DNA of 64,000 nt, taken from NCBI GenBank assembly GCA_021325435.1, contig JAJPHE010000160.1, positions 10,202-74,201 on the forward strand, read 5' to 3'. Within the stretch, counting starts at the first letter, position 1. The number at the start of each line of letters is the position of its first letter. The notes beneath the pieces are model-generated. The model was given only the letters and a program-made list of their open reading frames with translations, was not told the DNA's origin and ran no database searches. The translations under genes were made by a program, and so were the position numbers. The DNA is from Actinomycetota bacterium (GTDB lineage: Bacteria; Actinomycetota; Acidimicrobiia; Acidimicrobiales; JAJPHE01). Positions 11,684 to 38,754 of the stretch are shown here, piece by piece.

Positions 11684-12637
11684 GTGATTCGCAGAGAGCG
11701 CACCACCGGGGTGTACGACCCGTTCGACATCGACGGGCCGACCCTCGAGCGTCTGCTCTCCGGGAATCTGCACCCCGAGGACGCTCCCCCCGCCTTCGCC
11801 GCGGTGGCCGAATGCCTCGGGCTGGCGAGGGCGTCGTCGATCTCCGCTCCCCGCGGGGAAGCGGAGGCGGTGGCTGCTCTTGTCTCTTCCATCCATCGCC
11901 ATCCTCATCGCAACCGTCGGAGGAGCATCGTGATCGCCAAAATCGCCACCGCAAAACTCACCGCGCTCACCGCCGCCGGGGTCCTCTCCGCCGGCGGAGT
12001 CGCGGCCGCCGCCACCGGGTCCCTTCCGGCTCCGGTGCAGGACGCCGTCTCGTCGGTCGCCTCCGACGTCGGGGTTCCCGTTCCCAGCTCTTCGACCTCG
12101 ACGTCCACGCCGACAGACTCGACCGACGGCTCGACCACCACTGCGACTTCAGGCTCCGGCACCTCGTCCACCACCGGCACGCCGAGCACCGGTTCCACCG
12201 GCACCAGCGGCACCGGCACCACCACGAGCGGCGGCACATCCGGCTCGACCACCAGCACGTCCGGCTCGACCACCGGCACATCGGGCTCGACTTCGCCCAC
12301 GAGCGGCTCCGCCTCCGGAAGCACTTCGGGCTCGGCACCGGCGCCGTCGTCGGGCACCACGGCCAGCACCGGAACCTCGCCGACCGCCAGCACCTGCCCC
12401 TCCGGGTTCAAGAACCACGGGGCCTACGTGTCGAGCGTGGCCCACAGCGCGCCGAAGGGCCCGGGGCACGGCCAGGCTGTGTCGCAGGCCGCCCACTGCA
12501 CCTCGGGCGCCTCGCCCTCCGGCACGGGCTGGAACGCCCAGCCGGCCCCGTCGAGCGGGACGACCAGCGGTAGCGGGTCGACCGGCTCCAGCAGCGGTTC
12601 GAGCACCGGCTCCACCACCTCTGGGTCCGGTGACTGA
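11684..12637 (+). CDS. single-pass membrane protein with a Ser/Thr/Gly-rich ectodomain; candidate anti-sigma partner
   Basis: It starts 30 nt downstream of the ECF sigma stop. One TM helix (AKLTALTAAGVLSAGGVAAAA). About 130 aa of S/T/G low complexity. C-terminal Cys-flanked module CPSGFKNHGAYVSSVAHS...GHGQAVSQAAHC. No HxxxCxxC zinc anti-sigma motif. Confidence 0.55.
   Translation: MIRRERTTGVYDPFDIDGPTLERLLSGNLHPEDAPPAFAAVAECLGLARASSISAPRGEAEAVAALVSSIHRHPHRNRRRSIVIAKIATAKLTALTAAGVLSAGGVAAAATGSLPAPVQDAVSSVASDVGVPVPSSSTSTSTPTDSTDGSTTTATSGSGTSSTTGTPSTGSTGTSGTGTTTSGGTSGSTTSTSGSTTGTSGSTSPTSGSASGSTSGSAPAPSSGTTASTGTSPTASTCPSGFKNHGAYVSSVAHSAPKGPGHGQAVSQAAHCTSGASPSGTGWNAQPAPSSGTTSGSGSTGSSSGSSTGSTTSGSGD
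12236..12298 (+). repeat. imperfect 21-nt tandem repeat (about 3 units) inside the S/T/G-rich coding region
   Basis: acatccggctcgaccaccagc / acgtccggctcgaccaccggc / acatcgggctcgacttcgccc, encoding TSGSTTS-TSGSTTG-TSGSTSP. Confidence 0.6.
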
Positions 12638-14294: not shown

Positions 14295-15263
14295 GTGGGG
14301 GCGCGCATCGGCCTCGTGCTCGGGGCGGGCGGCGTGGTGGGCCACGCCTTCCATGCCGGAGTGCTGTCGACGCTGGCCGAGGAGGTCGGCTTCGATCCCC
14401 GCCGGGCCGAGCTGATCGTCGGCACCTCGGCCGGCTCGAGCGTTGCCGCCCTGCTCCGGGCGGGGGTGTCGGCGTCCGACCTGGCCGCCCGGGCCATGGG
14501 CCGACCGCTGTCCGCCGAGGGTGCCCGGGTGCTGGGCCAGGCCGGGTCCACCTCGTCGGCCCGCATCTCCGACCTGCCTCAGCCCCGCCGCTTTCGCATC
14601 GGGTTGGCTTCGCCCGGGCTTCTCGCCCGGACGGTCACCCGACCGTGGGAGGCCCGGCTGGGCACCCTGGCCGCCGCCGTGCTGCCGGCCGGGCCGGTCC
14701 CGACCGACGTCGTCAGCTCCTGGCTCGGCCCGATCTTCGGTGACCGATGGCCGCCGGGGATGTGGGTCTGCGCCGTCGACCTGGCCGACGGCCGGCGGGT
14801 GGTGTTCGGCGGGCCCCGGTCGCCCGCGGCCAGGGTCGCCGAGGCGGTGGCGGCGTCGTGTGCCATCCCCGGGTTCTTCTCGCCCGTGTCCATCGGCGGC
14901 CGGCGTTACGTCGACGGAGGCGCCCACTCGCCCACCAACGCCGATCTGATGGCGGGGGAGGGCTTCGACCTGGTGGTCGTCAGCTCTCCCATGTCGGCAG
15001 CCCGGCCCCTGGGCGGCGGGCTCGGCCTGGCCGGGCGTCGGTTAGCCCGGATGGCCCTGGGAACCGAGGTGGCGGCGGTGCGGCGCGGGGGCACGCCGGT
15101 CCTGGCGTTCCAACCGACGGCGGAGGACCGGGCGGTGATGGGGGTCAACGCCATGGACCCCGGGCGCCGCCACGGCGTCACCGTCCAGGCCCGGACGTCG
15201 ACCCGGCGTCGCCTGGCCCGGGCCGACCTCGCCGACCGCCTCGACATCCTGGCCCAGGCCTGA
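14295..15263 (+). CDS. patatin-like phospholipase
   Basis: Oxyanion GAGGVVGHAFHAG, nucleophile elbow GTSAGS and catalytic YVDGG. GGAGG lies upstream of GTG 14295. Confidence 0.85.
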   Translation: MGARIGLVLGAGGVVGHAFHAGVLSTLAEEVGFDPRRAELIVGTSAGSSVAALLRAGVSASDLAARAMGRPLSAEGARVLGQAGSTSSARISDLPQPRRFRIGLASPGLLARTVTRPWEARLGTLAAAVLPAGPVPTDVVSSWLGPIFGDRWPPGMWVCAVDLADGRRVVFGGPRSPAARVAEAVAASCAIPGFFSPVSIGGRRYVDGGAHSPTNADLMAGEGFDLVVVSSPMSAARPLGGGLGLAGRRLARMALGTEVAAVRRGGTPVLAFQPTAEDRAVMGVNAMDPGRRHGVTVQARTSTRRRLARADLADRLDILAQA

Positions 15264-15281
15264 GGGCCGCGATCGAGCCGG

Positions 15282-15926
15282 TCAGACCCTCTCGGACTCG
15301 GCCGCCTCAGCCGGGCGTCGCCACCACCGCAGCCCGGCCCAGGCAAGGCCCACCACCACGAGAACGGCGATCACGTAGGTAGCCGGCTGGAAACCGTGGG
15401 ACACGCCCCGCCAGTGCGAGGCCAACGCGTACCCGGTCAGCGCCAGGCCGAAGTCCCACGCCAGGCAGCCCGGCACGGTGAACAGGGTGAACCGCCAGAA
15501 CGGCATCTCGGCCACCCCCGCCGGGAGGCTGATGAACGTCCGCACGATCGGTATCACCCGCCCGAATAGCACCGCCGGCTCCCCCCGACGGCGGAACCAC
15601 CCCTCGGCCCGGTCGAGCTCATGGGCCCGCACCCTCACCAACCGGCCCCAGCGCTCGATGAGGGGACGTCCGCCGGCCCGGCCCACCCAGTAGGCGATCC
15701 ACGACCCCACGACGTTGCCGGCGGCGCCGAGAAGGCCCACGATCCCCACCTCGAGGTGACGGTGGGAATGGGCCACGCCCGACAGCAACGCCCCGCTCGA
15801 CAACGCCCCGCCGAACAGCATGATCGCCTCGGAGGGGATCGGGATGCAGGCCGATTCGGCGATCATCAGGACGAACACGGCGAGGTAGCCGTAGCTCAGG
15901 ATGTTGCTGGTTACGAAGTGCTCCAA
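15282..15926 (-). CDS. DedA/SNARE-associated family membrane protein
   Basis: YLAVFVLMIAESACIPIPSEAIMLFGG is the DedA signature. Start is TTG (caa 15924-15926). Confidence 0.85.
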   Translation of the reverse strand: MEHFVTSNILSYGYLAVFVLMIAESACIPIPSEAIMLFGGALSSGALLSGVAHSHRHLEVGIVGLLGAAGNVVGSWIAYWVGRAGGRPLIERWGRLVRVRAHELDRAEGWFRRRGEPAVLFGRVIPIVRTFISLPAGVAEMPFWRFTLFTVPGCLAWDFGLALTGYALASHWRGVSHGFQPATYVIAVLVVVGLAWAGLRWWRRPAEAAESERV

Positions 15927-16180
15927 GGGGCCTCCGCCGGAGATCGAAGGGGGATGACACTACGGGAGCGTCCGGTACGATGGCGGGAGCACACCTGAGT
16001 GGTGTCTGAGAGCCGGCCTGCGGGCCCGACCCCGAGGAGGTGACACGGGTGCGAAGAGGTGAACCCCCGAGTAGTCCCCACGCGCCCCGGCCCTCCTGGG
16101 AGCTGGCCTGACGTACTGACCGGTCGCCCGCCCTGGGAGGGAAGCAACAACCACCCACGATCCAGGAAGCGGAGGCTCCC
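15927..16180 (+). promoter_or_regulatory. 254-nt untranslated leader with a long-range helix that covers the downstream SD; unclassified
   Basis: 15927-15937 (GGGGCCTCCGC) can pair with 16169-16179 (GCGGAGGCTCC) for 11 bp including one G-U. The 3' arm contains the GGAGG located 5 nt before ATG 16181. A local hairpin sits at 15991-16005. Confidence 0.3.
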
Positions 16181-17509
16181 ATGTCACGTCGCCCTGGCCT
16201 CCCGGCGCCCCGTTTGAGGGCGCGTCGCACGGAGAGGCTCCTTGCCACCAGGCAGGTCCGCGAAGCCATCGTCTCTCTGGCCGGCCTGATGGGCCGGCCG
16301 GTGGTCAACCAGGGCGGCGCCGAGATCGGCCGCCTGCACGACATCGTCGTGCGCTGGTCCGACGACGAGCTGTACCCACCGGTCACCGGTCTCGTCGTGC
16401 GCGTCGGACGTCGCCTGGCCTTCGTGGACGCCGGCGCCATCGAGCGCTTCACCCACGGAGACGTGTGCCTGCGATCATCCCGACTGGACCTGCGCGACTA
16501 CCAGCGCCGGCCCGGGGAGGTGCTGATCGCCAAGGACCTGCTCGACCACCAGCTCGTCGACGTGGACGGGGTGCAGGTCGTTCGGGCCTCGGATCTCTAC
16601 CTGGCCAACGTCAGGGGGCGGCTCCGCCTCGTCGGTGTCGACGTCAGCGTCAACTCGCTGGTGCGCCGGCTCGGGCCGGCCCGGTGGCGGACCCGGCCGA
16701 CGCCCGGCCGGGTCATCGACTGGGCCGCCATCCAGCCGTTCGGCGACGGAACCAACCTGGTCCGCCTGCGCACCTCCCACGAGGGACTCCACCGGCTCCG
16801 CCCCGGCGAGCTGGCCGACCTGTTGGAGGACCTCGGGCGGCCCGCCCGCCAGGAGCTGCTGGCCCACCTGGACCCCGAGCAGGCTGCGGACGCCCTCGAG
16901 GAGATGGACCCCGAAGAGCTCGAGGCCCTCCTGCGCGAGGCCCCGCCGGAGCAGGCCGCCGAGCTGGTGGCCTCGATGGAGCCGGACGAGGCGGTGGATG
17001 CGCTGCGTGACCTCGGCGAGGCCGAGCGCGAGGAGCTGCTGGCCAACATGCCCGCTGATGTGGCCGACCAGCTGACCGAGCTGCTCGATTATCCGGCCGA
17101 CAGCGCCGGGGGGATCATGACGACGATCGTCGTCACGGCCGGGTTGGACGAGAACGTGGACAGCGTCTGCCAAAGGTTGCGCGACGTGCGTGAGCATCGC
17201 GGCGACCTCGACGCCGTCGCCGTCGTGGACCCCGAGGGCCGTTTCCTCGGGGACCTTCCCCTCTACGATCTGGCGGTGGCCGACCGTCTCACCCCTGTCG
17301 CCGAGCTCCTCGTCGACACCACGCCGGTGACGGTGAAGCCCGACGCGCCGCTGCGCGACGTGGCCGCTCATCTGGTCGAGGCCCGTCAGCTGTCGATCGT
17401 GGTGGTCGACGACGAGGGACGGCCCCAGGGCCGAATCCTCGCCGACGACATGGTCGACGCTCTGCTGCCCGAGCGCGGCCGGTTGCACTTCCCGAGGCTG
17501 CTCCAGTGA
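16181..17509 (+). CDS. soluble PRC-barrel x2 / MgtE N-terminal domain / CBS-pair protein with no transporter domain
   Basis: PRC-like segments (GRPVVNQGGAEIGRLHDIVV; LLDHQLVDVDGVQVVRASDLYL). Acidic helical MgtE_N repeats (LHRLRPGELADLLEDL...DALEEMDPEELEALL...ELVASMEPDEAVDAL...LLANMPADVADQL). CBS pair (GGIMTT...). No TM segments. Confidence 0.8.
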   Translation: MSRRPGLPAPRLRARRTERLLATRQVREAIVSLAGLMGRPVVNQGGAEIGRLHDIVVRWSDDELYPPVTGLVVRVGRRLAFVDAGAIERFTHGDVCLRSSRLDLRDYQRRPGEVLIAKDLLDHQLVDVDGVQVVRASDLYLANVRGRLRLVGVDVSVNSLVRRLGPARWRTRPTPGRVIDWAAIQPFGDGTNLVRLRTSHEGLHRLRPGELADLLEDLGRPARQELLAHLDPEQAADALEEMDPEELEALLREAPPEQAAELVASMEPDEAVDALRDLGEAEREELLANMPADVADQLTELLDYPADSAGGIMTTIVVTAGLDENVDSVCQRLRDVREHRGDLDAVAVVDPEGRFLGDLPLYDLAVADRLTPVAELLVDTTPVTVKPDAPLRDVAAHLVEARQLSIVVVDDEGRPQGRILADDMVDALLPERGRLHFPRLLQ

Positions 17510-17516
17510 GCGTGCC

Positions 17517-18839
17517 ATGGCCAGCCCCGTCACGCAGGAGCGACGTTCCGGTCGGCTGGCCGGACCGGCGCGGGCCCTGGCCGGGGCGAGGGTCAGCGCC
17601 GGGGGCCGGGCCCGGCAGCTGCTGGCTTACGCGGCGTTCGCCGGCCCGGGGCTGATCGCCGCCAACGCCGGCAACGACGCCGGGGGCATCGCCACCTACG
17701 CGTCGGCTGGTAGCCAGTTCCGCTACCGGACCCTGTTCTTCATGGTGCTGGTCACCATCGGGCTGGTCGTAGTGCAGGAGATGTCCACCAGGCTGGGCGC
17801 CTTCACCGGCAAGGGGCTGGCCGCCCTCATCCGCGAGGAGTTCTCCATCCGGCTGGCCACCTTCGCCCTTGGCTGCCTTCTGCTGGCCAACCTCGGCTTG
17901 GTCGTCACCGAGTTCGCCGGCGTCGGCGCCGCCTTCGAGTTGTTCGGAGTGCCGCGCTACCTCACCGTGCCGATCGCCGCCGTCGCCATCTGGGCCCTCG
18001 TCCTGTTCGGTTCCTACCGCTACGCCGAGCGGATCTTCCTGGTGCTCTCGCTGGCGTTTCTCACCTACCCGATCGCCGCTGTCCTCGGCCACCCGCATTG
18101 GGGGCAGGTGGCGTCCGACACCGTTCTGCCCCACTTCCTCGGCAGCCGCGACTTCGTCCTGCTGGGGGTGGCGCTCATCGGTACCACGATCAGCCCTTAC
18201 ATGCAGCTTTACGCCGCCGCCGGAGTCGTCGACCGCGGCATCGGCCCCGACGAGTACCGCTACGAGCGCATCGACGCCGTGTCCGGCGCCATTTTCGCCA
18301 ACGTCGTGTCCATGTTCATCATCATCGCCACCGCCGCCGCCATCGGGGGGCACGGACCCCTCAACTCGGCCAAGGAGGCGGCCCAGGCGTTGCGTCCTGT
18401 GGCCGGGCCCGGGGCGACGCTGCTGTTCGGCATGGGCCTGCTCGGCGCCTCGGCCCTGGCCGGGGCGGTGGTGCCCCTCTCGACGGCCTACGCCGTGTCC
18501 GAAGCGGTCGGCGCCGAACGCTCCGTGTCGCGCAGGTTCAACGAGGCGCCGGTGCTCCTCGGCCTGTTCACCGGGCAAATCGTGGTGGGAGCAGCGGTCG
18601 CCCTGATCCCGTTCAACCTGATCCACCTGCTGATCGGAACCCAGGTCCTCCAGGGATTGGTGACCCCGGTCTTCCTGACGTTCATCCTCGTCCTGGCCAA
18701 CCGCCGAGACGTCCTCGGCGATGCGGCCAACGGTCGAACTTTCCGAAAGGTGGCCTTCGTGACGGTCCTGGCCGTGGGCGGCCTGTCCCTGGTGCTCCTC
18801 GGCCAGACGGTGCTCGGCTGGCTAGGACTGGTCCACTGA
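17517..18839 (+). CDS. NRAMP/SLC11-family transporter with non-canonical metal-site residues
   Basis: The family N-terminus is GPGLIAANAGNDAGGIATYASAGSQFRY, where canonical proteins read ..DPGN... The TM6 region is LIGTTISPYMQLY, where canonical proteins read G-A-x-x-M-P-H-N-L-Y. About 11 TM helices. Confidence 0.85.
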   Translation: MASPVTQERRSGRLAGPARALAGARVSAGGRARQLLAYAAFAGPGLIAANAGNDAGGIATYASAGSQFRYRTLFFMVLVTIGLVVVQEMSTRLGAFTGKGLAALIREEFSIRLATFALGCLLLANLGLVVTEFAGVGAAFELFGVPRYLTVPIAAVAIWALVLFGSYRYAERIFLVLSLAFLTYPIAAVLGHPHWGQVASDTVLPHFLGSRDFVLLGVALIGTTISPYMQLYAAAGVVDRGIGPDEYRYERIDAVSGAIFANVVSMFIIIATAAAIGGHGPLNSAKEAAQALRPVAGPGATLLFGMGLLGASALAGAVVPLSTAYAVSEAVGAERSVSRRFNEAPVLLGLFTGQIVVGAAVALIPFNLIHLLIGTQVLQGLVTPVFLTFILVLANRRDVLGDAANGRTFRKVAFVTVLAVGGLSLVLLGQTVLGWLGLVH

Positions 18840-18904: not shown

Positions 18905-20170
18905 ATGAAACGGACGGGGGAGGGGCTGCGCATCGCCTTCCTCGCCTATCGGGGGAACCCCCATTCCGGCGGACAGGGCGTCTACACCCGCTACCTGACC
19001 TCCGAGCTCACCGCCCTCGGCCACCACGTCGAGGTGTTCGGCGGCCAGCCCTACCCGGTCCTCGAGGACGGGGTGCGACTGGTGCCGGTGCCGAGCCTGG
19101 ACCTCTACCGCAAGCCGGACCCCTTCCGCATCCCCCGCCCCCACGAGTTCCGCCAGGGCGTGGACTTTCTGGAGTTCGGCCTGATGTGCACCGCCGGCTT
19201 TCCCGAACCGCTCACCTTCAGCCTGCGGGCCCGCAAGGTGCTGGCCGCCCGCCGCCACGAGTTCGACCTGGTGCACGACAACCAGTGCCTGGGACGCGGG
19301 TTGCTCGGCATGCTGGACGACGGTTGGCCTCTCTTGGCCACCCTGCACCATCCGATCACCGTCGACCGCGATCTGGAGCTGGCCCACGCCCGCACCCTCC
19401 GCCGCAAGCTGACCCTGCGGCGCTGGTACGGGTTCCTCGGCATGCAGTGCCGGGTCGCTCGCCAGCTCCCCCGTATCGTCACCGTGTCCGAGTCGTCGAG
19501 GAACGACATCGCCTCCCAGATGGGCGTGGCGGGCGATCGCCTGTCGATCGTCCCTGTCGGCGTAGACCACCAACGCTTCCGGCCCATGCCGCAGGTGGCT
19601 CGGGTGCCGGGCCGGCTCATGACCACCGCCAGCGCCGACGTGCCGCTCAAGGGCCTGGTGCCCCTGCTCGAGGCGTTGGCCAAGGTGCGCACCGAGCGCC
19701 ACGCCGAGCTGGTTGTGATCGGCTCGCCCCGTCCGGAGAGCCGGGTCGGCGAGACCATCGACCGGCTCGGGCTGCACGACGCCGTTCGCTTCGTCAGCGG
19801 GGTGAGCGACGAGGAGCTCGTCCGGCTGTACGCCGAGGCGGAGGCCGCCGTGGTCCCCTCGCTGTACGAGGGTTTCTCCCTGCCCGCCGTCGAGGCCATG
19901 GCCTGCGGCGTGTGCCTGGTGGCGACGACGGGCGGCGCCCTGCCCGAGGTGGTCGGGCGCAGCGGCGAGACCGGCCTGCTGGTTCCCCCCGGCGACCCGG
20001 GAGCGCTGGCTCTGGCGCTCAGTCGGGTGCTGGACGAGCCCGAGCTGCGGGCCCGGCTGGGGGCGGCCGGTCGGGCCCGGGTCCTCGAGCGCTTCACGTG
20101 GCGGGCTACCGCCGCCGGCACCGCCGAGATATACGCCGAGATGATGGAGGAGCGGGCGGCGGCGTGCTGA
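18905..20170 (+). CDS. GT-B glycosyltransferase (GT4/group 1)
   Basis: N-terminus IAFLAYRGNPHSGGQGVYTRYL. C-terminal EGFSLPAVEAMACGVCLVATTGGALPEVV (E-x7-E region). Start set at ATG 18905. The track's 690-aa ORF begins inside the NRAMP gene. Confidence 0.85.
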   Translation: MKRTGEGLRIAFLAYRGNPHSGGQGVYTRYLTSELTALGHHVEVFGGQPYPVLEDGVRLVPVPSLDLYRKPDPFRIPRPHEFRQGVDFLEFGLMCTAGFPEPLTFSLRARKVLAARRHEFDLVHDNQCLGRGLLGMLDDGWPLLATLHHPITVDRDLELAHARTLRRKLTLRRWYGFLGMQCRVARQLPRIVTVSESSRNDIASQMGVAGDRLSIVPVGVDHQRFRPMPQVARVPGRLMTTASADVPLKGLVPLLEALAKVRTERHAELVVIGSPRPESRVGETIDRLGLHDAVRFVSGVSDEELVRLYAEAEAAVVPSLYEGFSLPAVEAMACGVCLVATTGGALPEVVGRSGETGLLVPPGDPGALALALSRVLDEPELRARLGAAGRARVLERFTWRATAAGTAEIYAEMMEERAAAC

Positions 20171-20871
20171 CCGTGCGCTACGACCGGCTGGGATTGCGGC
20201 CCGGCGATCGCGTCCTCGACCTTGGTTGCGGGGCCGGCCGCCACGCCTACGAGTCGATGCGCCGGGGGGCGACCGTCATCGCTCTCGACGCCAGCGACTC
20301 CGAGCTCAAAGACGTCGCCGGCACCATGGCGGCCCTCATCGAGCAGGGTGAGGGCCCGGGTGGGGGAGGGGTGGTCAACGGTGACGGGCTGCACCTGCCG
20401 TTCCCCGACTCCTCCTTCGACCGGATCATCGCCGCTGAGGTGCTCGAGCACATCCCCGCCGACACCGGCGCCATCGGCGAGCTGGCCCGCGTCCTGCGTC
20501 CCGGCGGCACCATGGCCGTCACCGTGCCCCGCTTCGGTCCCGAGCTGGTGAACTGGGTTCTGTCGGACGCTTACCACTCGGTCGAGGGTGGTCACGTCCG
20601 CATCTACCGGCGCTCGGCCCTCGGCGCCCGGCTGGCGGCGGCCGGTCTGCGGGTCACCGGCTCCCACCACGCCCACGCCCTGCACACCCCGTACTGGTGG
20701 CTGCGGTGCGCGGTCGGGGTCGACCGGGCCGATCACCCCGTAGTGTCGGCCTACCACCGGCTGTTGGTCTGGGACATCGTGTCGGCCCCGCCCGTCACCC
20801 GGGTGGCCGACCGGCTGCTGAATCCGCTGATGGGCAAGAGCCTCGTGGTCTACGTGGAGAAGCCGGCATGA
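20164..20871 (+). CDS. class I SAM-dependent methyltransferase
   Basis: Motif I VLDLGCGAGRHA, then ALDAS, then post-I/II DRIIAAEVLEHI and LRPGGTMAV. GTG 20164 overlaps the glycosyltransferase stop by 7 nt. Confidence 0.85.
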   Translation: MLTVRYDRLGLRPGDRVLDLGCGAGRHAYESMRRGATVIALDASDSELKDVAGTMAALIEQGEGPGGGGVVNGDGLHLPFPDSSFDRIIAAEVLEHIPADTGAIGELARVLRPGGTMAVTVPRFGPELVNWVLSDAYHSVEGGHVRIYRRSALGARLAAAGLRVTGSHHAHALHTPYWWLRCAVGVDRADHPVVSAYHRLLVWDIVSAPPVTRVADRLLNPLMGKSLVVYVEKPA

Positions 20872-21959
20872 GCCGGCCGCCGCTGCCGGCCGTGCCCGGC
20901 GTCATCAGCGCCGACCAGGTGGCCCAGACCGCCGACTCGATCGCCGCCGTGCAACTGCCGTCCGGCATGATCCCCTGGTTCCCTGGCGGCCACGCCGATC
21001 CGTGGAACCACGTCGAAGCGGCGATGGCGCTCACCGTCGCCGGGCGCCTGGCCGAGGCCGAGGACGCCTACGCCTGGCTGCGCGACGCCCAACACGCCGA
21101 CGGCTGGTGGTGCACCTACTACCTGGCCGAGGGGGTGGAGGAGCCCCGCCGCGACACCAACGTGATCTCCTACGTGGCCACCGGCTGCTGGCACCACTAC
21201 CTGTCGACCGGCGACCGCGGGTTCCTCGAGTGGGCGTGGCCCATGGTCCGTTCCGCCGTCAGCTTCGCTCTGCGCTACCAGCTTCCCGGGGGCGAGCTCA
21301 TCTGGTCGGTCGACCCCGACGGCACCCCCGGCCGTTTCGCCCTGCTCACCGGCACGGCCTCGGCCTACTTCAGCGTGCGCTGCGCCATCGCCATCGCCGA
21401 GGAGCTCGGCGACGACCAGCCCGAGTGGGAGCTGGCCGCCGGCCGGCTGGCCCACTCCGTGGCCCGCCGTCCCGACGCCTTCGAGCCCAAGGAGCGTTGG
21501 GCGATGGACTGGTATTACCCGGTGCTGTGCGGCGCCCTGTCCGGCGCCGCCGGCCGAGCCCGCATCTCGGAGCGCTGGGGTGAGTTCGTGATGAACGACC
21601 GGGGGGTGCGCTGTGTGTCGGACCGGCCCTGGGTGACGGCGGCGGAGACCGCCGAGTGTGTCCTGACGCTGGACGCCCTCGGGTGGCGCGAGGACGCCGT
21701 CCGTCTCCTGTCCTGGGTCCAGAGCCTGCGCGACGTCGACGGGTCGTACTGGACGGGACGGGTCTACCCCGAGCGGGCCAACTTCCCCGGCGGCGAGCGC
21801 AGCACCTACACCGCCGCCGCCATCGTGCTGGCCGCCAACGCCCTCGGGGGCAGCGGGCCGGCCGCCGGTCTGTTCCGCGGCGAGCAGCTGCCGGTCGGGG
21901 TCGAGTTCCTCGAGCCGGCCCTCGACGGCTCGGAAGCCGACCCGGCCCAGCACCCCTAG
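20868..21959 (+). CDS. prenyltransferase / terpenoid-cyclase-fold (alpha-alpha toroid) protein
   Basis: Repeated aromatic/Trp-rich helical hairpins (QLPSGMIPWFPGGHADPWNHVEAAMAL, DGWWCTYY, DGSYWTG). ATGA start/stop overlap with the methyltransferase. The family call is by resemblance only. Confidence 0.6.
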   Translation: MSRPPLPAVPGVISADQVAQTADSIAAVQLPSGMIPWFPGGHADPWNHVEAAMALTVAGRLAEAEDAYAWLRDAQHADGWWCTYYLAEGVEEPRRDTNVISYVATGCWHHYLSTGDRGFLEWAWPMVRSAVSFALRYQLPGGELIWSVDPDGTPGRFALLTGTASAYFSVRCAIAIAEELGDDQPEWELAAGRLAHSVARRPDAFEPKERWAMDWYYPVLCGALSGAAGRARISERWGEFVMNDRGVRCVSDRPWVTAAETAECVLTLDALGWREDAVRLLSWVQSLRDVDGSYWTGRVYPERANFPGGERSTYTAAAIVLAANALGGSGPAAGLFRGEQLPVGVEFLEPALDGSEADPAQHP

Positions 21960-38683: not shown

Positions 38684-38754
38684 TCGGGGGTCGTCCAACG
38701 GCAGGACAGCGGACTTTGGATCCGCTAATGGAGGTTCGAGCCCTCCCCCCCGAG
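38684..38754 (+). tRNA. tRNA-Gln (anticodon TTG)
   Basis: Manual cloverleaf. Acceptor TCGGGGG/CCCCCGA. D-arm GTCC-AACGGCA-GGAC. Anticodon arm GCGGA-CTTTGGA-TCCGC (TTG at 38716-38718). Variable region TAAT. T-arm GGAGG-TTCGAGC-CCTCC. Discriminator G. CCA is not encoded. Confidence 0.85.

Follow-up and report, generated by a model that had tools for sequence, protein, structure and literature searches.

A leader reading frame, a detached MgtE-type module and an NRMT-type carrier: a probable three-part magnesium-uptake operon of Actinomycetota

Introduction

The locus considered here lies at positions 16,181 to 18,839 of a 64,000-nucleotide (nt) stretch of an acidimicrobial genome (contig JAJPHE010000160.1; the whole stretch is referred to as the window), and it raises the question of what a soluble protein resembling the cytoplasmic part of an MgtE channel (gene A) does directly before a transporter of the NRAMP-related Mg2+ transporter (NRMT) type (gene B). 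A preliminary description, made from the sequence alone, proposed that a detached MgtE-like Mg2+ sensor regulates an NRMT-like transporter, and regarded this arrangement as uncharacterised to its knowledge. The locus is best explained as a magnesium-uptake operon in three parts, of a kind typical of Actinomycetota, consisting of a leader open reading frame (ORF; uORF below), a protein of PRC-PRC-MgtE_N-CBS architecture and an NRMT-type carrier of the SLC11 family. The gene pair as such has been known since 2014, and the locus is an ordinary member of that group; the PRC tandem, a PRC-only variant of the partner, the mapping of the metal-site residues and the conserved leader ORF are additions for which no description was found.

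Results and Discussion

Gene A

Both genes are on the + strand of the window (ORF list; G+C of the window about 72%) and the gap between them is 7 nt, the TGA stop of gene A occupying 17507–17509 and the ATG of gene B following at 17517; coordinates of all features are collected in Table 1. The start of gene A at ATG 16181 sits 6 nt after GGAGG, and the N-terminus MSRRPGLP fits the sequence MxRRPPLP conserved among homologues (alignment A1); the deposited annotation begins the gene 11 codons downstream, at 16214 (431 residues), and judged by the homologue N-termini and the GGAGG it is probably too short.

The MgtE_N domain is followed by a CBS pair (two Pfam stretches, E 3.7e-13); residues 200–310 contain 32 acidic and 7 basic residues. 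The AlphaFold2 model of gene A (pLDDT 76) was superposed through residues 200–430 on the MgtE cytosolic domains 2oux, 2yvy and 8gps (Foldseek E ~1e-18; TM-score 0.76–0.82, target-normalised), and the PDB sequence matches of gene A were MgtE cytosolic domains as well. The MgtE equivalog model TIGR00400 gave 78.9 bits against a cutoff of 232.75, with profile positions 23–251 only being covered. Pfam did not find the membrane domain of MgtE in gene A, nothing was matched beyond the CBS pair, and the protein ends 12 residues after it; the peak 19-residue Kyte-Doolittle hydropathy is 0.99, and therefore no membrane segment is present. Gene A is the Mg2+-sensing cytoplasmic module of MgtE, with pore and plug helix missing and two PRC barrels placed in front; Pfam, Foldseek and hydropathy agree here with the preliminary description, which had seen in it an acidic MgtE_N part and a CBS pair with no membrane domain.

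The cytosolic Mg2+ sites of Thermus thermophilus MgtE (TtMgtE) are Mg4 (D91/D247), Mg5 (D226/D250), Mg6 (D95) and Mg7 (E59); the plug-helix sites Mg2 and Mg3 are represented by E258 and D259 (Maruyama 2018). HMMER alignment placed the cytosolic sites on gene A as follows: Mg4 – D269/D423; Mg5 – R402/D426; Mg6 – D273; Mg7 – D237. The mapped residues are invariant or nearly so among the 31 homologues of alignment A1; D422, D423, D426 and R402 are invariant. A role of the gene A protein as Mg2+ sensor is plausible; five of the six aligned carboxylate positions are kept acidic. Of the residues in the C-terminal tail, R434 and P438 never vary in A1 and H436, F437 and R439 hardly do; the tail fails to align in the Eggerthellaceae orthologue.

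PRC-barrel modules of gene A

The Pfam PRC profile (PF05239) gave 12.8 bits on residues 1–205 (E 0.13), below the cutoff of 21.2. With the AlphaFold2 model of these residues (pLDDT 72.5), Foldseek returned PRC-barrel proteins only: CdpB1/B2 (8qzo; E 1.7e-5, 184–194 columns), with reaction-centre H subunits, MTH1859 and RimM as further matches. Among relatives of the N-terminal module PF05239 was matched by 62 of 150 (best E 4e-13). The Eggerthellaceae orthologue (locus L082), which aligns with residues 30–428 of gene A (31% identity, E 2e-58), contains PRC in two stretches (45.4 bits, E 8e-12), and the first 200 residues of gene A are conserved as well as the remainder (A1). The two PRC-barrel-like modules proposed earlier are thus below the Pfam threshold on gene A itself and borne out by fold, relatives and orthologue.

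At two Solirubrobacterales loci the partner consists of PRC-PRC and a short unrelated tail, and overlaps the start of the NRMT gene (L044: 4195–4983, 262 residues; L075: 4132–4935, 267 residues); no match to MgtE_N or CBS was found within ~11 kb at either locus. The PRC pair is the sole partner module found in all partners examined, and is therefore the best candidate for the element by which the partner docks on the transporter; compared across these sequences, it is likely the docking module on the carrier. This Solirubrobacterales form, read from genome DNA, was the sole short form kept. A short N-module family suggested by the length distribution of the relatives was rejected, many of the short representatives being frameshifted fragments of full-length genes; a natural fusion of partner and NRMT was likewise discarded as evidence of interaction, since the sole representative with both parts (P0314, 244 residues) looks like a chimeric fragment.

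Gene B

Gene B matched Pfam Nramp (PF01566) with E 1.1e-80. When compared with all PDB sequences, it gave as best match the NRMT of Eggerthella lenta (EleNRMT, 7qia; E 1.3e-93, 43% identity), whereas canonical MntH structures were matched from E 5.5e-19 (DraNramp). The metal site was aligned by HMMER; transmembrane helix 1 (TM1): AGNDAGGI (gene B), AGNDAGGI (EleNRMT), AYMDPGNF (DraNramp), with D54..G57 of gene B opposite D55..G58 of EleNRMT and D56..N59 of DraNramp; TM6: IGTTISPYM (gene B), IGTTIAPWM (EleNRMT), IGATVMPHV (DraNramp). The DxxG motif and T223, as well as the equivalents of Q376 and E132, are invariant among the homologues of gene B (alignment A2). Both His positions of helix α6b are Tyr in gene B (H232/H237 of DraNramp opposite Y228/Y232); EleNRMT carries Trp and Asn there (Ramanadane 2022). 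The preliminary description was right on all three counts, namely the SLC11/NRAMP fold, the NRMT likeness and the replacement, by hand alignment, of Asn by Gly and of Met by Ser: DAGG falls opposite DPGN, and TTISPY opposite ATVMPH.

The published signature of NRMTs is DxxG-TxxA/T, that of canonical transporters DxxN-A/CxxM; the solved EleNRMT moves Mg2+ and Mn2+ with no proton coupling, its T224A mutant loses Mg2+ but keeps Mn2+ transport, Q379 is essential, and the His residues of the proton pathway are lost (Ramanadane 2022). T223 of gene B occupies the position of T224. The residue at the former Met position is Ser, outside the TxxA/T signature; in the clade of gene B Ser (TxxS) is found there in the majority and Thr (TxxT) in the minority of sequences. 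By sequence, TxxS appears to be a small variant of the published motif, Ser still being a hard-oxygen residue, and gene B is assigned to the NRMT branch of SLC11. With Asn, Ala, Met and the α6b His residues replaced by Gly, Thr, Ser and Tyr, respectively, soft-metal selectivity and proton coupling are not expected in gene B.

Conservation of the gene pair and earlier work

A scan with the NRMT alignment, one genome per species, gave at least 488 confirmed matches; linkage and leader counts refer to the best 80 of these, which are mostly from Acidimicrobiia, Streptomyces, Kitasatospora, Mycolicibacterium and Pseudonocardiales. In 79 of the 80 loci the NRMT gene is immediately preceded by the partner on the same strand, the remaining locus being without upstream DNA; loci reached from the partner side have an Nramp gene downstream in three cases of three, with a 4-nt overlap. 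Genes 91–93% identical to EleNRMT (Eggerthellaceae) are preceded at 3–4 nt by a 450-residue PRC+MgtE_N+CBS gene. The pair extends from Coriobacteriia to Acidimicrobiia, Streptomyces, Mycolicibacterium and Solirubrobacterales, with varying flanking genes; its two members are neighbours almost without exception, frequently with overlapping frames. The PRC-PRC-MgtE_N-CBS architecture is present in two distant actinomycetotal NRMT clades and is therefore not peculiar to the source genome.

It was reported by Shin et al. (2014, PLoS Genet, PMC4072509) that most NrmT genes adjoin a gene that shares homology with MgtE's N-terminal cytoplasmic domain, in other phyla too; a cytoplasmic feedback regulation of transport, or an effect on metal-chaperone activity, was suggested by these authors for the neighbour. 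Thus, of the earlier interpretation of the present locus the gene identities stood, together with the close same-strand spacing and the expected conservation of the pair in relatives; the novelty of the arrangement did not, both the gene pair and the feedback idea being contained in the 2014 paper. The partner is not addressed by Ramanadane 2022 and 2023, by Cellier 2022 and 2023 or in a 2026 review. No literature on PRC-barrel with MgtE or on NRMT with CBS was found in a search of limited coverage, so that its absence is no proof of novelty.

Leader open reading frame

The 20-codon leader ORF (Table 1) stops 69 nt before gene A and contains the conserved core GAA CCC CCG AGT AGT at 16061–16075; the GGAGGTG block of its Shine-Dalgarno region is conserved across the leaders (alignment A7). 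In 65 of the 80 leaders a uORF was found that is led by a Shine-Dalgarno sequence and has [E/D]-P-[P/S/C/H]-S as core in its first ten codons, or else MD(S/G)SPGHS, the form of Streptomyces and Kitasatospora; controls: 1 of 80 on the reverse strand, 0.85 in shuffles. Eggerthellaceae leaders carry LKVRK(S/P)KPHSK. Within the core the Pro codons vary at their third positions and the middle codon varies throughout, as expected of coding sequence. Ser is nevertheless encoded by AGT in 64 of the 65 loci, and Glu mostly by GAA; among the codons used for these residues in neighbouring genes, AGT has a share of 0.7% and GAA one of 9.6%. A constraint at the level of RNA or of rare codons is therefore indicated on top of the coding constraint. 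TAG in the −1 frame stands directly after the Pro codons of the uORF, and many uORFs end in CTGAC...CTGAC.

No second copy of the leader motif was found in the window besides the element at 16049–16111. The M-box (RF00380) was not matched anywhere in the window when the gathering threshold was applied, nor in 15200–16500 with the limit set to E<=10, nor in the Eggerthellaceae partner/NRMT loci; no other Rfam family was matched in the gene A leader. In Eggerthellaceae operons a tRNA gene is situated upstream of the leader (L082: 2944–3017; L084: 3325–3405).

Metagenome contigs were searched with the DNA motif of the leader alone, AGGAGGTG-N6-24-GAACCNCCNAGTAG; 114 stretches were obtained, 96 of them with >=700 nt downstream. 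A gene A homologue was directly downstream in 83 of these 96, usually followed by NRMT; about 9 of the 114 matches are due to chance, e.g. the start of an unrelated 415-residue ORF. In two stretches (L144 and L147) the gene after an in-frame uORF (MRSEPPSS... and MTRSEPPSS..., respectively) encodes a CorA protein bearing YGMNFD, the motif of that family (PF01544; E 2e-56 and 2e-62). The M-box was first tied to Mg2+ by the same pattern, one leader being found before unrelated classes of Mg2+ transporters; the sharing of the present leader by NRMT operons and CorA argues, from comparison of the sequences, for the uORF being a Mg2+-related cis-regulatory element. A further stretch (L172) shows the operon rearranged: a distant NRMT-like gene (34% identical) comes directly after the uORF, and the PRC-MgtE_N-CBS gene is found downstream of it, on the other strand.

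The leaders of Streptomyces and Kitasatospora (L028–L076) show pairing of the Shine-Dalgarno sequence of the uORF with the GUCCUUCC stretch inside the uORF, and a conserved GC-rich hairpin right before the ribosome-binding site AAGGGGGTG of the partner gene (A6 columns 291–325) with a few compensatory changes; the Shine-Dalgarno/CCNCC pairing is perfect only where the motif is CCUCC.

Short leader ORFs before Mg2+ transporter genes have precedents: MgtL of Salmonella (MEPDPTPLP...) reportedly senses Mg2+ via ribosome destabilisation, and the Salmonella mgtA leader uses a short leader ORF in the same manner as the mgtCBRU leader. In the latter, the leader ORFs mgtM and mgtP respond to ATP and to charged tRNA-Pro, Asp/Glu codons of mgtQ destabilise the ribosome with the result that translation of mgtB goes up, and consecutive Pro codons stall ribosomes (PMC8092293). 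No paper on an actinobacterial uORF before Mg2+ transporter genes was found, the coverage of the search being limited.

Proposed mechanism and alternatives

In the mechanism proposed here the gene A protein would dimerise through its CBS pair and, with the acidic sites that it retains between N and CBS domains (equivalents of Mg4, Mg6 and Mg7), bind Mg2+, closing in the way of the MgtE cytosolic domain. The PRC pair, perhaps together with the conserved tail, would dock on the cytoplasmic face of the NRMT, and the Mg2+-bound protein would restrain the carrier, limiting uptake when Mg2+ is replete. The leader ORF would set the synthesis of both proteins; through the early acidic-Pro-x-Ser(AGU) stretch its translation may come to respond to ribosome state and to Mg2+, short leader ORFs being used likewise in the Salmonella mgtCBRU leader (PMC8092293). 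Taken as a whole, this mechanism, drawn from sequence comparison, is given about even chances by us.

Several observations weigh against it. On the partner side, the Mg5 ligand D226 is replaced by the invariant R402, the plug-helix sites Mg2 and Mg3 are missing from gene A, and the structural model has low confidence in the linker and in the second PRC module. On the functional side, NrmT of Acidobacterium capsulatum fully rescued an Mn2+ defect, the Mg2+ defect being rescued only at millimolar Mg2+, and co-expression of its partner gave no further rescue (Shin 2014, PMC4072509). As to the leader, 30 sequences with the EPPS core yielded no consensus RNA structure, the single-sequence fold of the leader in the window is no more stable than shuffles (z = +0.64), and the near-invariant rare AGT and GAA codons suggest an RNA-level constraint beyond the peptide model.

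A partner that does not gate the carrier but activates it, helps in assembly, or hands on Mg2+ or Mn2+ as a cytosolic metal chaperone or buffer would agree with the A. capsulatum co-expression, by which transport was neither inhibited nor stimulated, and with the chaperone alternative offered in the same study (PMC4072509). The very acidic MgtE_N repeat could simply bind cations, and PRC barrels are general protein-protein adaptors. However, the residues kept in gene A are those bridging N and CBS in the Mg2+-locked state of MgtE, which points to a conformational switch and not to bulk binding, and the Solirubrobacterales partners are without the acidic domain, yet still linked to NRMT; this explanation is considered unlikely. 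A carrier that imports mainly Mn2+ or divalent cations broadly, with a partner that senses adenine nucleotides through CBS or another metal, would find support in the A. capsulatum rescue (a partner of the same kind, and no M-box), in the Mn2+ transport by EleNRMT, in the TxxS site, in the missing M-box of the gene A leader and in the nucleotide binding common among CBS pairs (PDB matches of the gene A model). Against this stand the invariance of T223, whose counterpart is needed for Mg2+ and not for Mn2+ transport in EleNRMT, the loss of the soft Met ligand, the occurrence of the same leader ORF before CorA, a dedicated Mg2+ channel family, and the MgtE Mg2+-site carboxylates kept in gene A, so that a system not centred on Mg2+ seems improbable. 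Adjacency by descent only, with no functional meaning, is hardly credible: it is already contradicted by the conservation of the pair, whose frames overlap or nearly abut from Coriobacteriia to Solirubrobacterales while the flanks differ, and which is found in other phyla too (PMC4072509).

Beyond a Mg2+-sensing partner that restrains the NRMT, a bolder proposal may be put forward as a tentative one, somewhat doubtful as a whole: the leader would encode an undescribed peptide of Actinomycetota that reads cytosolic Mg2+ (E/D-P-x-S with rare AGU, acting by proline stalling or by intrinsic ribosome destabilisation) before both NRMT and CorA, and the PRC tandem would be the real NRMT-binding element, with MgtE_N-CBS as a detachable Mg2+-sensing add-on. 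In function such a leader peptide would correspond to Salmonella MgtL as well as to the M-box riboswitch.

Comparison with known systems

The nearest relatives are the NrmT/NRMT operons (Clostridium acetobutylicum Ca_c0685; A. capsulatum ACP2976/2977; EleNRMT), which have the same transporter branch and, in the operons of Shin 2014, the same upstream gene for an MgtE cytoplasmic domain with the regulatory hypothesis already attached; DxxG, the TM6 Thr and the absence of Met and of the α6b His residues are common to them and gene B. The differences are Ser in place of Ala/Thr at the former Met position and a locus without M-box. In comparison with canonical Nramp/MntH proteins (DraNramp, ScaDMT, EcoDMT), gene B has the same LeuT/SLC11 fold with the TM1 Asp, TM3 Glu and TM10 Gln; unlike them, it has the four replacements described above, at a similarity of E 5e-19.

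With TtMgtE (2yvx/2zy9) gene A shares the fold of the N domain and the CBS pair (TM-score ~0.8) and acidic residues at the ligand positions of Mg4, Mg6, Mg7 and at one of the two of Mg5. Unlike MgtE, it is without plug helix, five-helix transmembrane pore and the sites Mg1–Mg3 and carries Arg at D226, and is not an MgtE channel; two N-terminal PRC barrels and a conserved 12-residue C-terminal tail are added instead. The barrels have the small β-barrel fold of the reaction-centre H subunit, CdpB1/CdpB2 and the C-terminal domain of RimM, at only 11–24% identity to known PRC proteins, and the tandem or paired arrangement is that of archaeal CdpB1/B2. In known proteins PRC domains are protein-protein adaptors, the H-subunit barrel being located on the cytoplasmic face of a membrane complex; the fusion with MgtE_N-CBS and the linkage to SLC11 are features of gene A and not of known PRC-barrel proteins.

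The uORF resembles Salmonella mgtM, mgtP and mgtQ (PMC8092293) in its shortness, in its place within the 5' leader of genes for a Mg2+ transporter and in having codons for acidic residues and Pro early in the frame, and, like the M-box, it is common to unrelated classes of Mg2+ transporters (NRMT operons, CorA). Unlike the Salmonella leader ORFs, it has no sequence similarity to them, belongs to Actinomycetota and has the core E/D-P-x-S, in which the rare AGU hardly varies; alternative RNA helices that are conserved were not identified.

The interest of the locus is moderate and comes mainly from the leader ORF, the gene pair being nothing new in kind. Should the uORF prove to respond to Mg2+, high-GC Gram-positive bacteria, Streptomyces and mycobacterial relatives among them, would have in it a leader that senses Mg2+. 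The role of the MgtE-like partner, a question since 2014, has become more testable, with residues D237, D269, D273, D423 and D426 named and the PRC pair as likely docking module; the partner of the EleNRMT relatives has the same architecture, so that the existing proteoliposome assays and cryo-EM tools are directly applicable.

Feature coordinates and flanking region

Table 1: Features of the locus (positions within the window).
Feature	Position	Strand	Basis
Promoter-like site: ATGACA, 16 nt, TACGAT	15954..15981	+	consensus scan only
Shine-Dalgarno GAGGAGG (extended GGAGGTGA), 8 nt 5' of leader ORF GTG	16034..16040	+	sequence; leader comparison
Leader ORF (uORF), 20 codons, VRRGEPPSSPHAPRPSWELA then stop (VRRGEPPSS...), GTG 16049 to TGA 16111	16049..16111	+	leader comparison
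Gene A: soluble 442-residue PRC-PRC-MgtE_N-CBS-CBS protein, putative regulatory partner	16181..17509	+	Pfam, homologues, model
Gene A: tandem PRC-barrel-like modules, residues ~30–100 and ~112–190	16268..16750	+	AlphaFold2 model, Foldseek, relatives
Gene A: MgtE_N domain, residues 206–307, acidic helical repeat with D237, D269, D273	16796..17101	+	Pfam E 1.3e-22
Gene A: CBS pair, residues ~309–430, with D423, D426, and R402 at the TtMgtE D226 position	17105..17470	+	Pfam CBS, Foldseek
Gene A: C-terminal tail PERGRxHFPRLLQ in place of MgtE plug helix and membrane domain	17468..17506	+	alignment A1
Gene B: NRMT-type SLC11 transporter, 440 residues	17517..18839	+	Pfam Nramp, EleNRMT match
Gene B: TM1 metal-site motif D54-A-G-G57 (DxxG), Gly for canonical Asn	17676..17687	+	HMMER alignment
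Gene B: TM6 metal-site motif T223-T-I-S226 (TxxS), Thr for Ala, Ser for canonical Met	18183..18194	+	HMMER alignment

The promoter-like site was found once against 0.1 expected in shuffles, which is weak evidence; with it the leader would be ~190 nt long. On the 3' side of the NRMT gene (window 18905–21900) a GT4 glycosyltransferase and a class I methyltransferase are encoded, as in two other Acidimicrobiia contigs (L086 and L087); this neighbourhood looks like synteny only. The sole Rfam match at the gathering threshold within the window is a tRNA gene on the + strand (38684–38754). At 11684–12637 a long low-complexity ORF rich in Ser, Thr and Gly comes right after an ECF-type sigma factor gene; two short minus-strand genes are given in its place in the deposited annotation.

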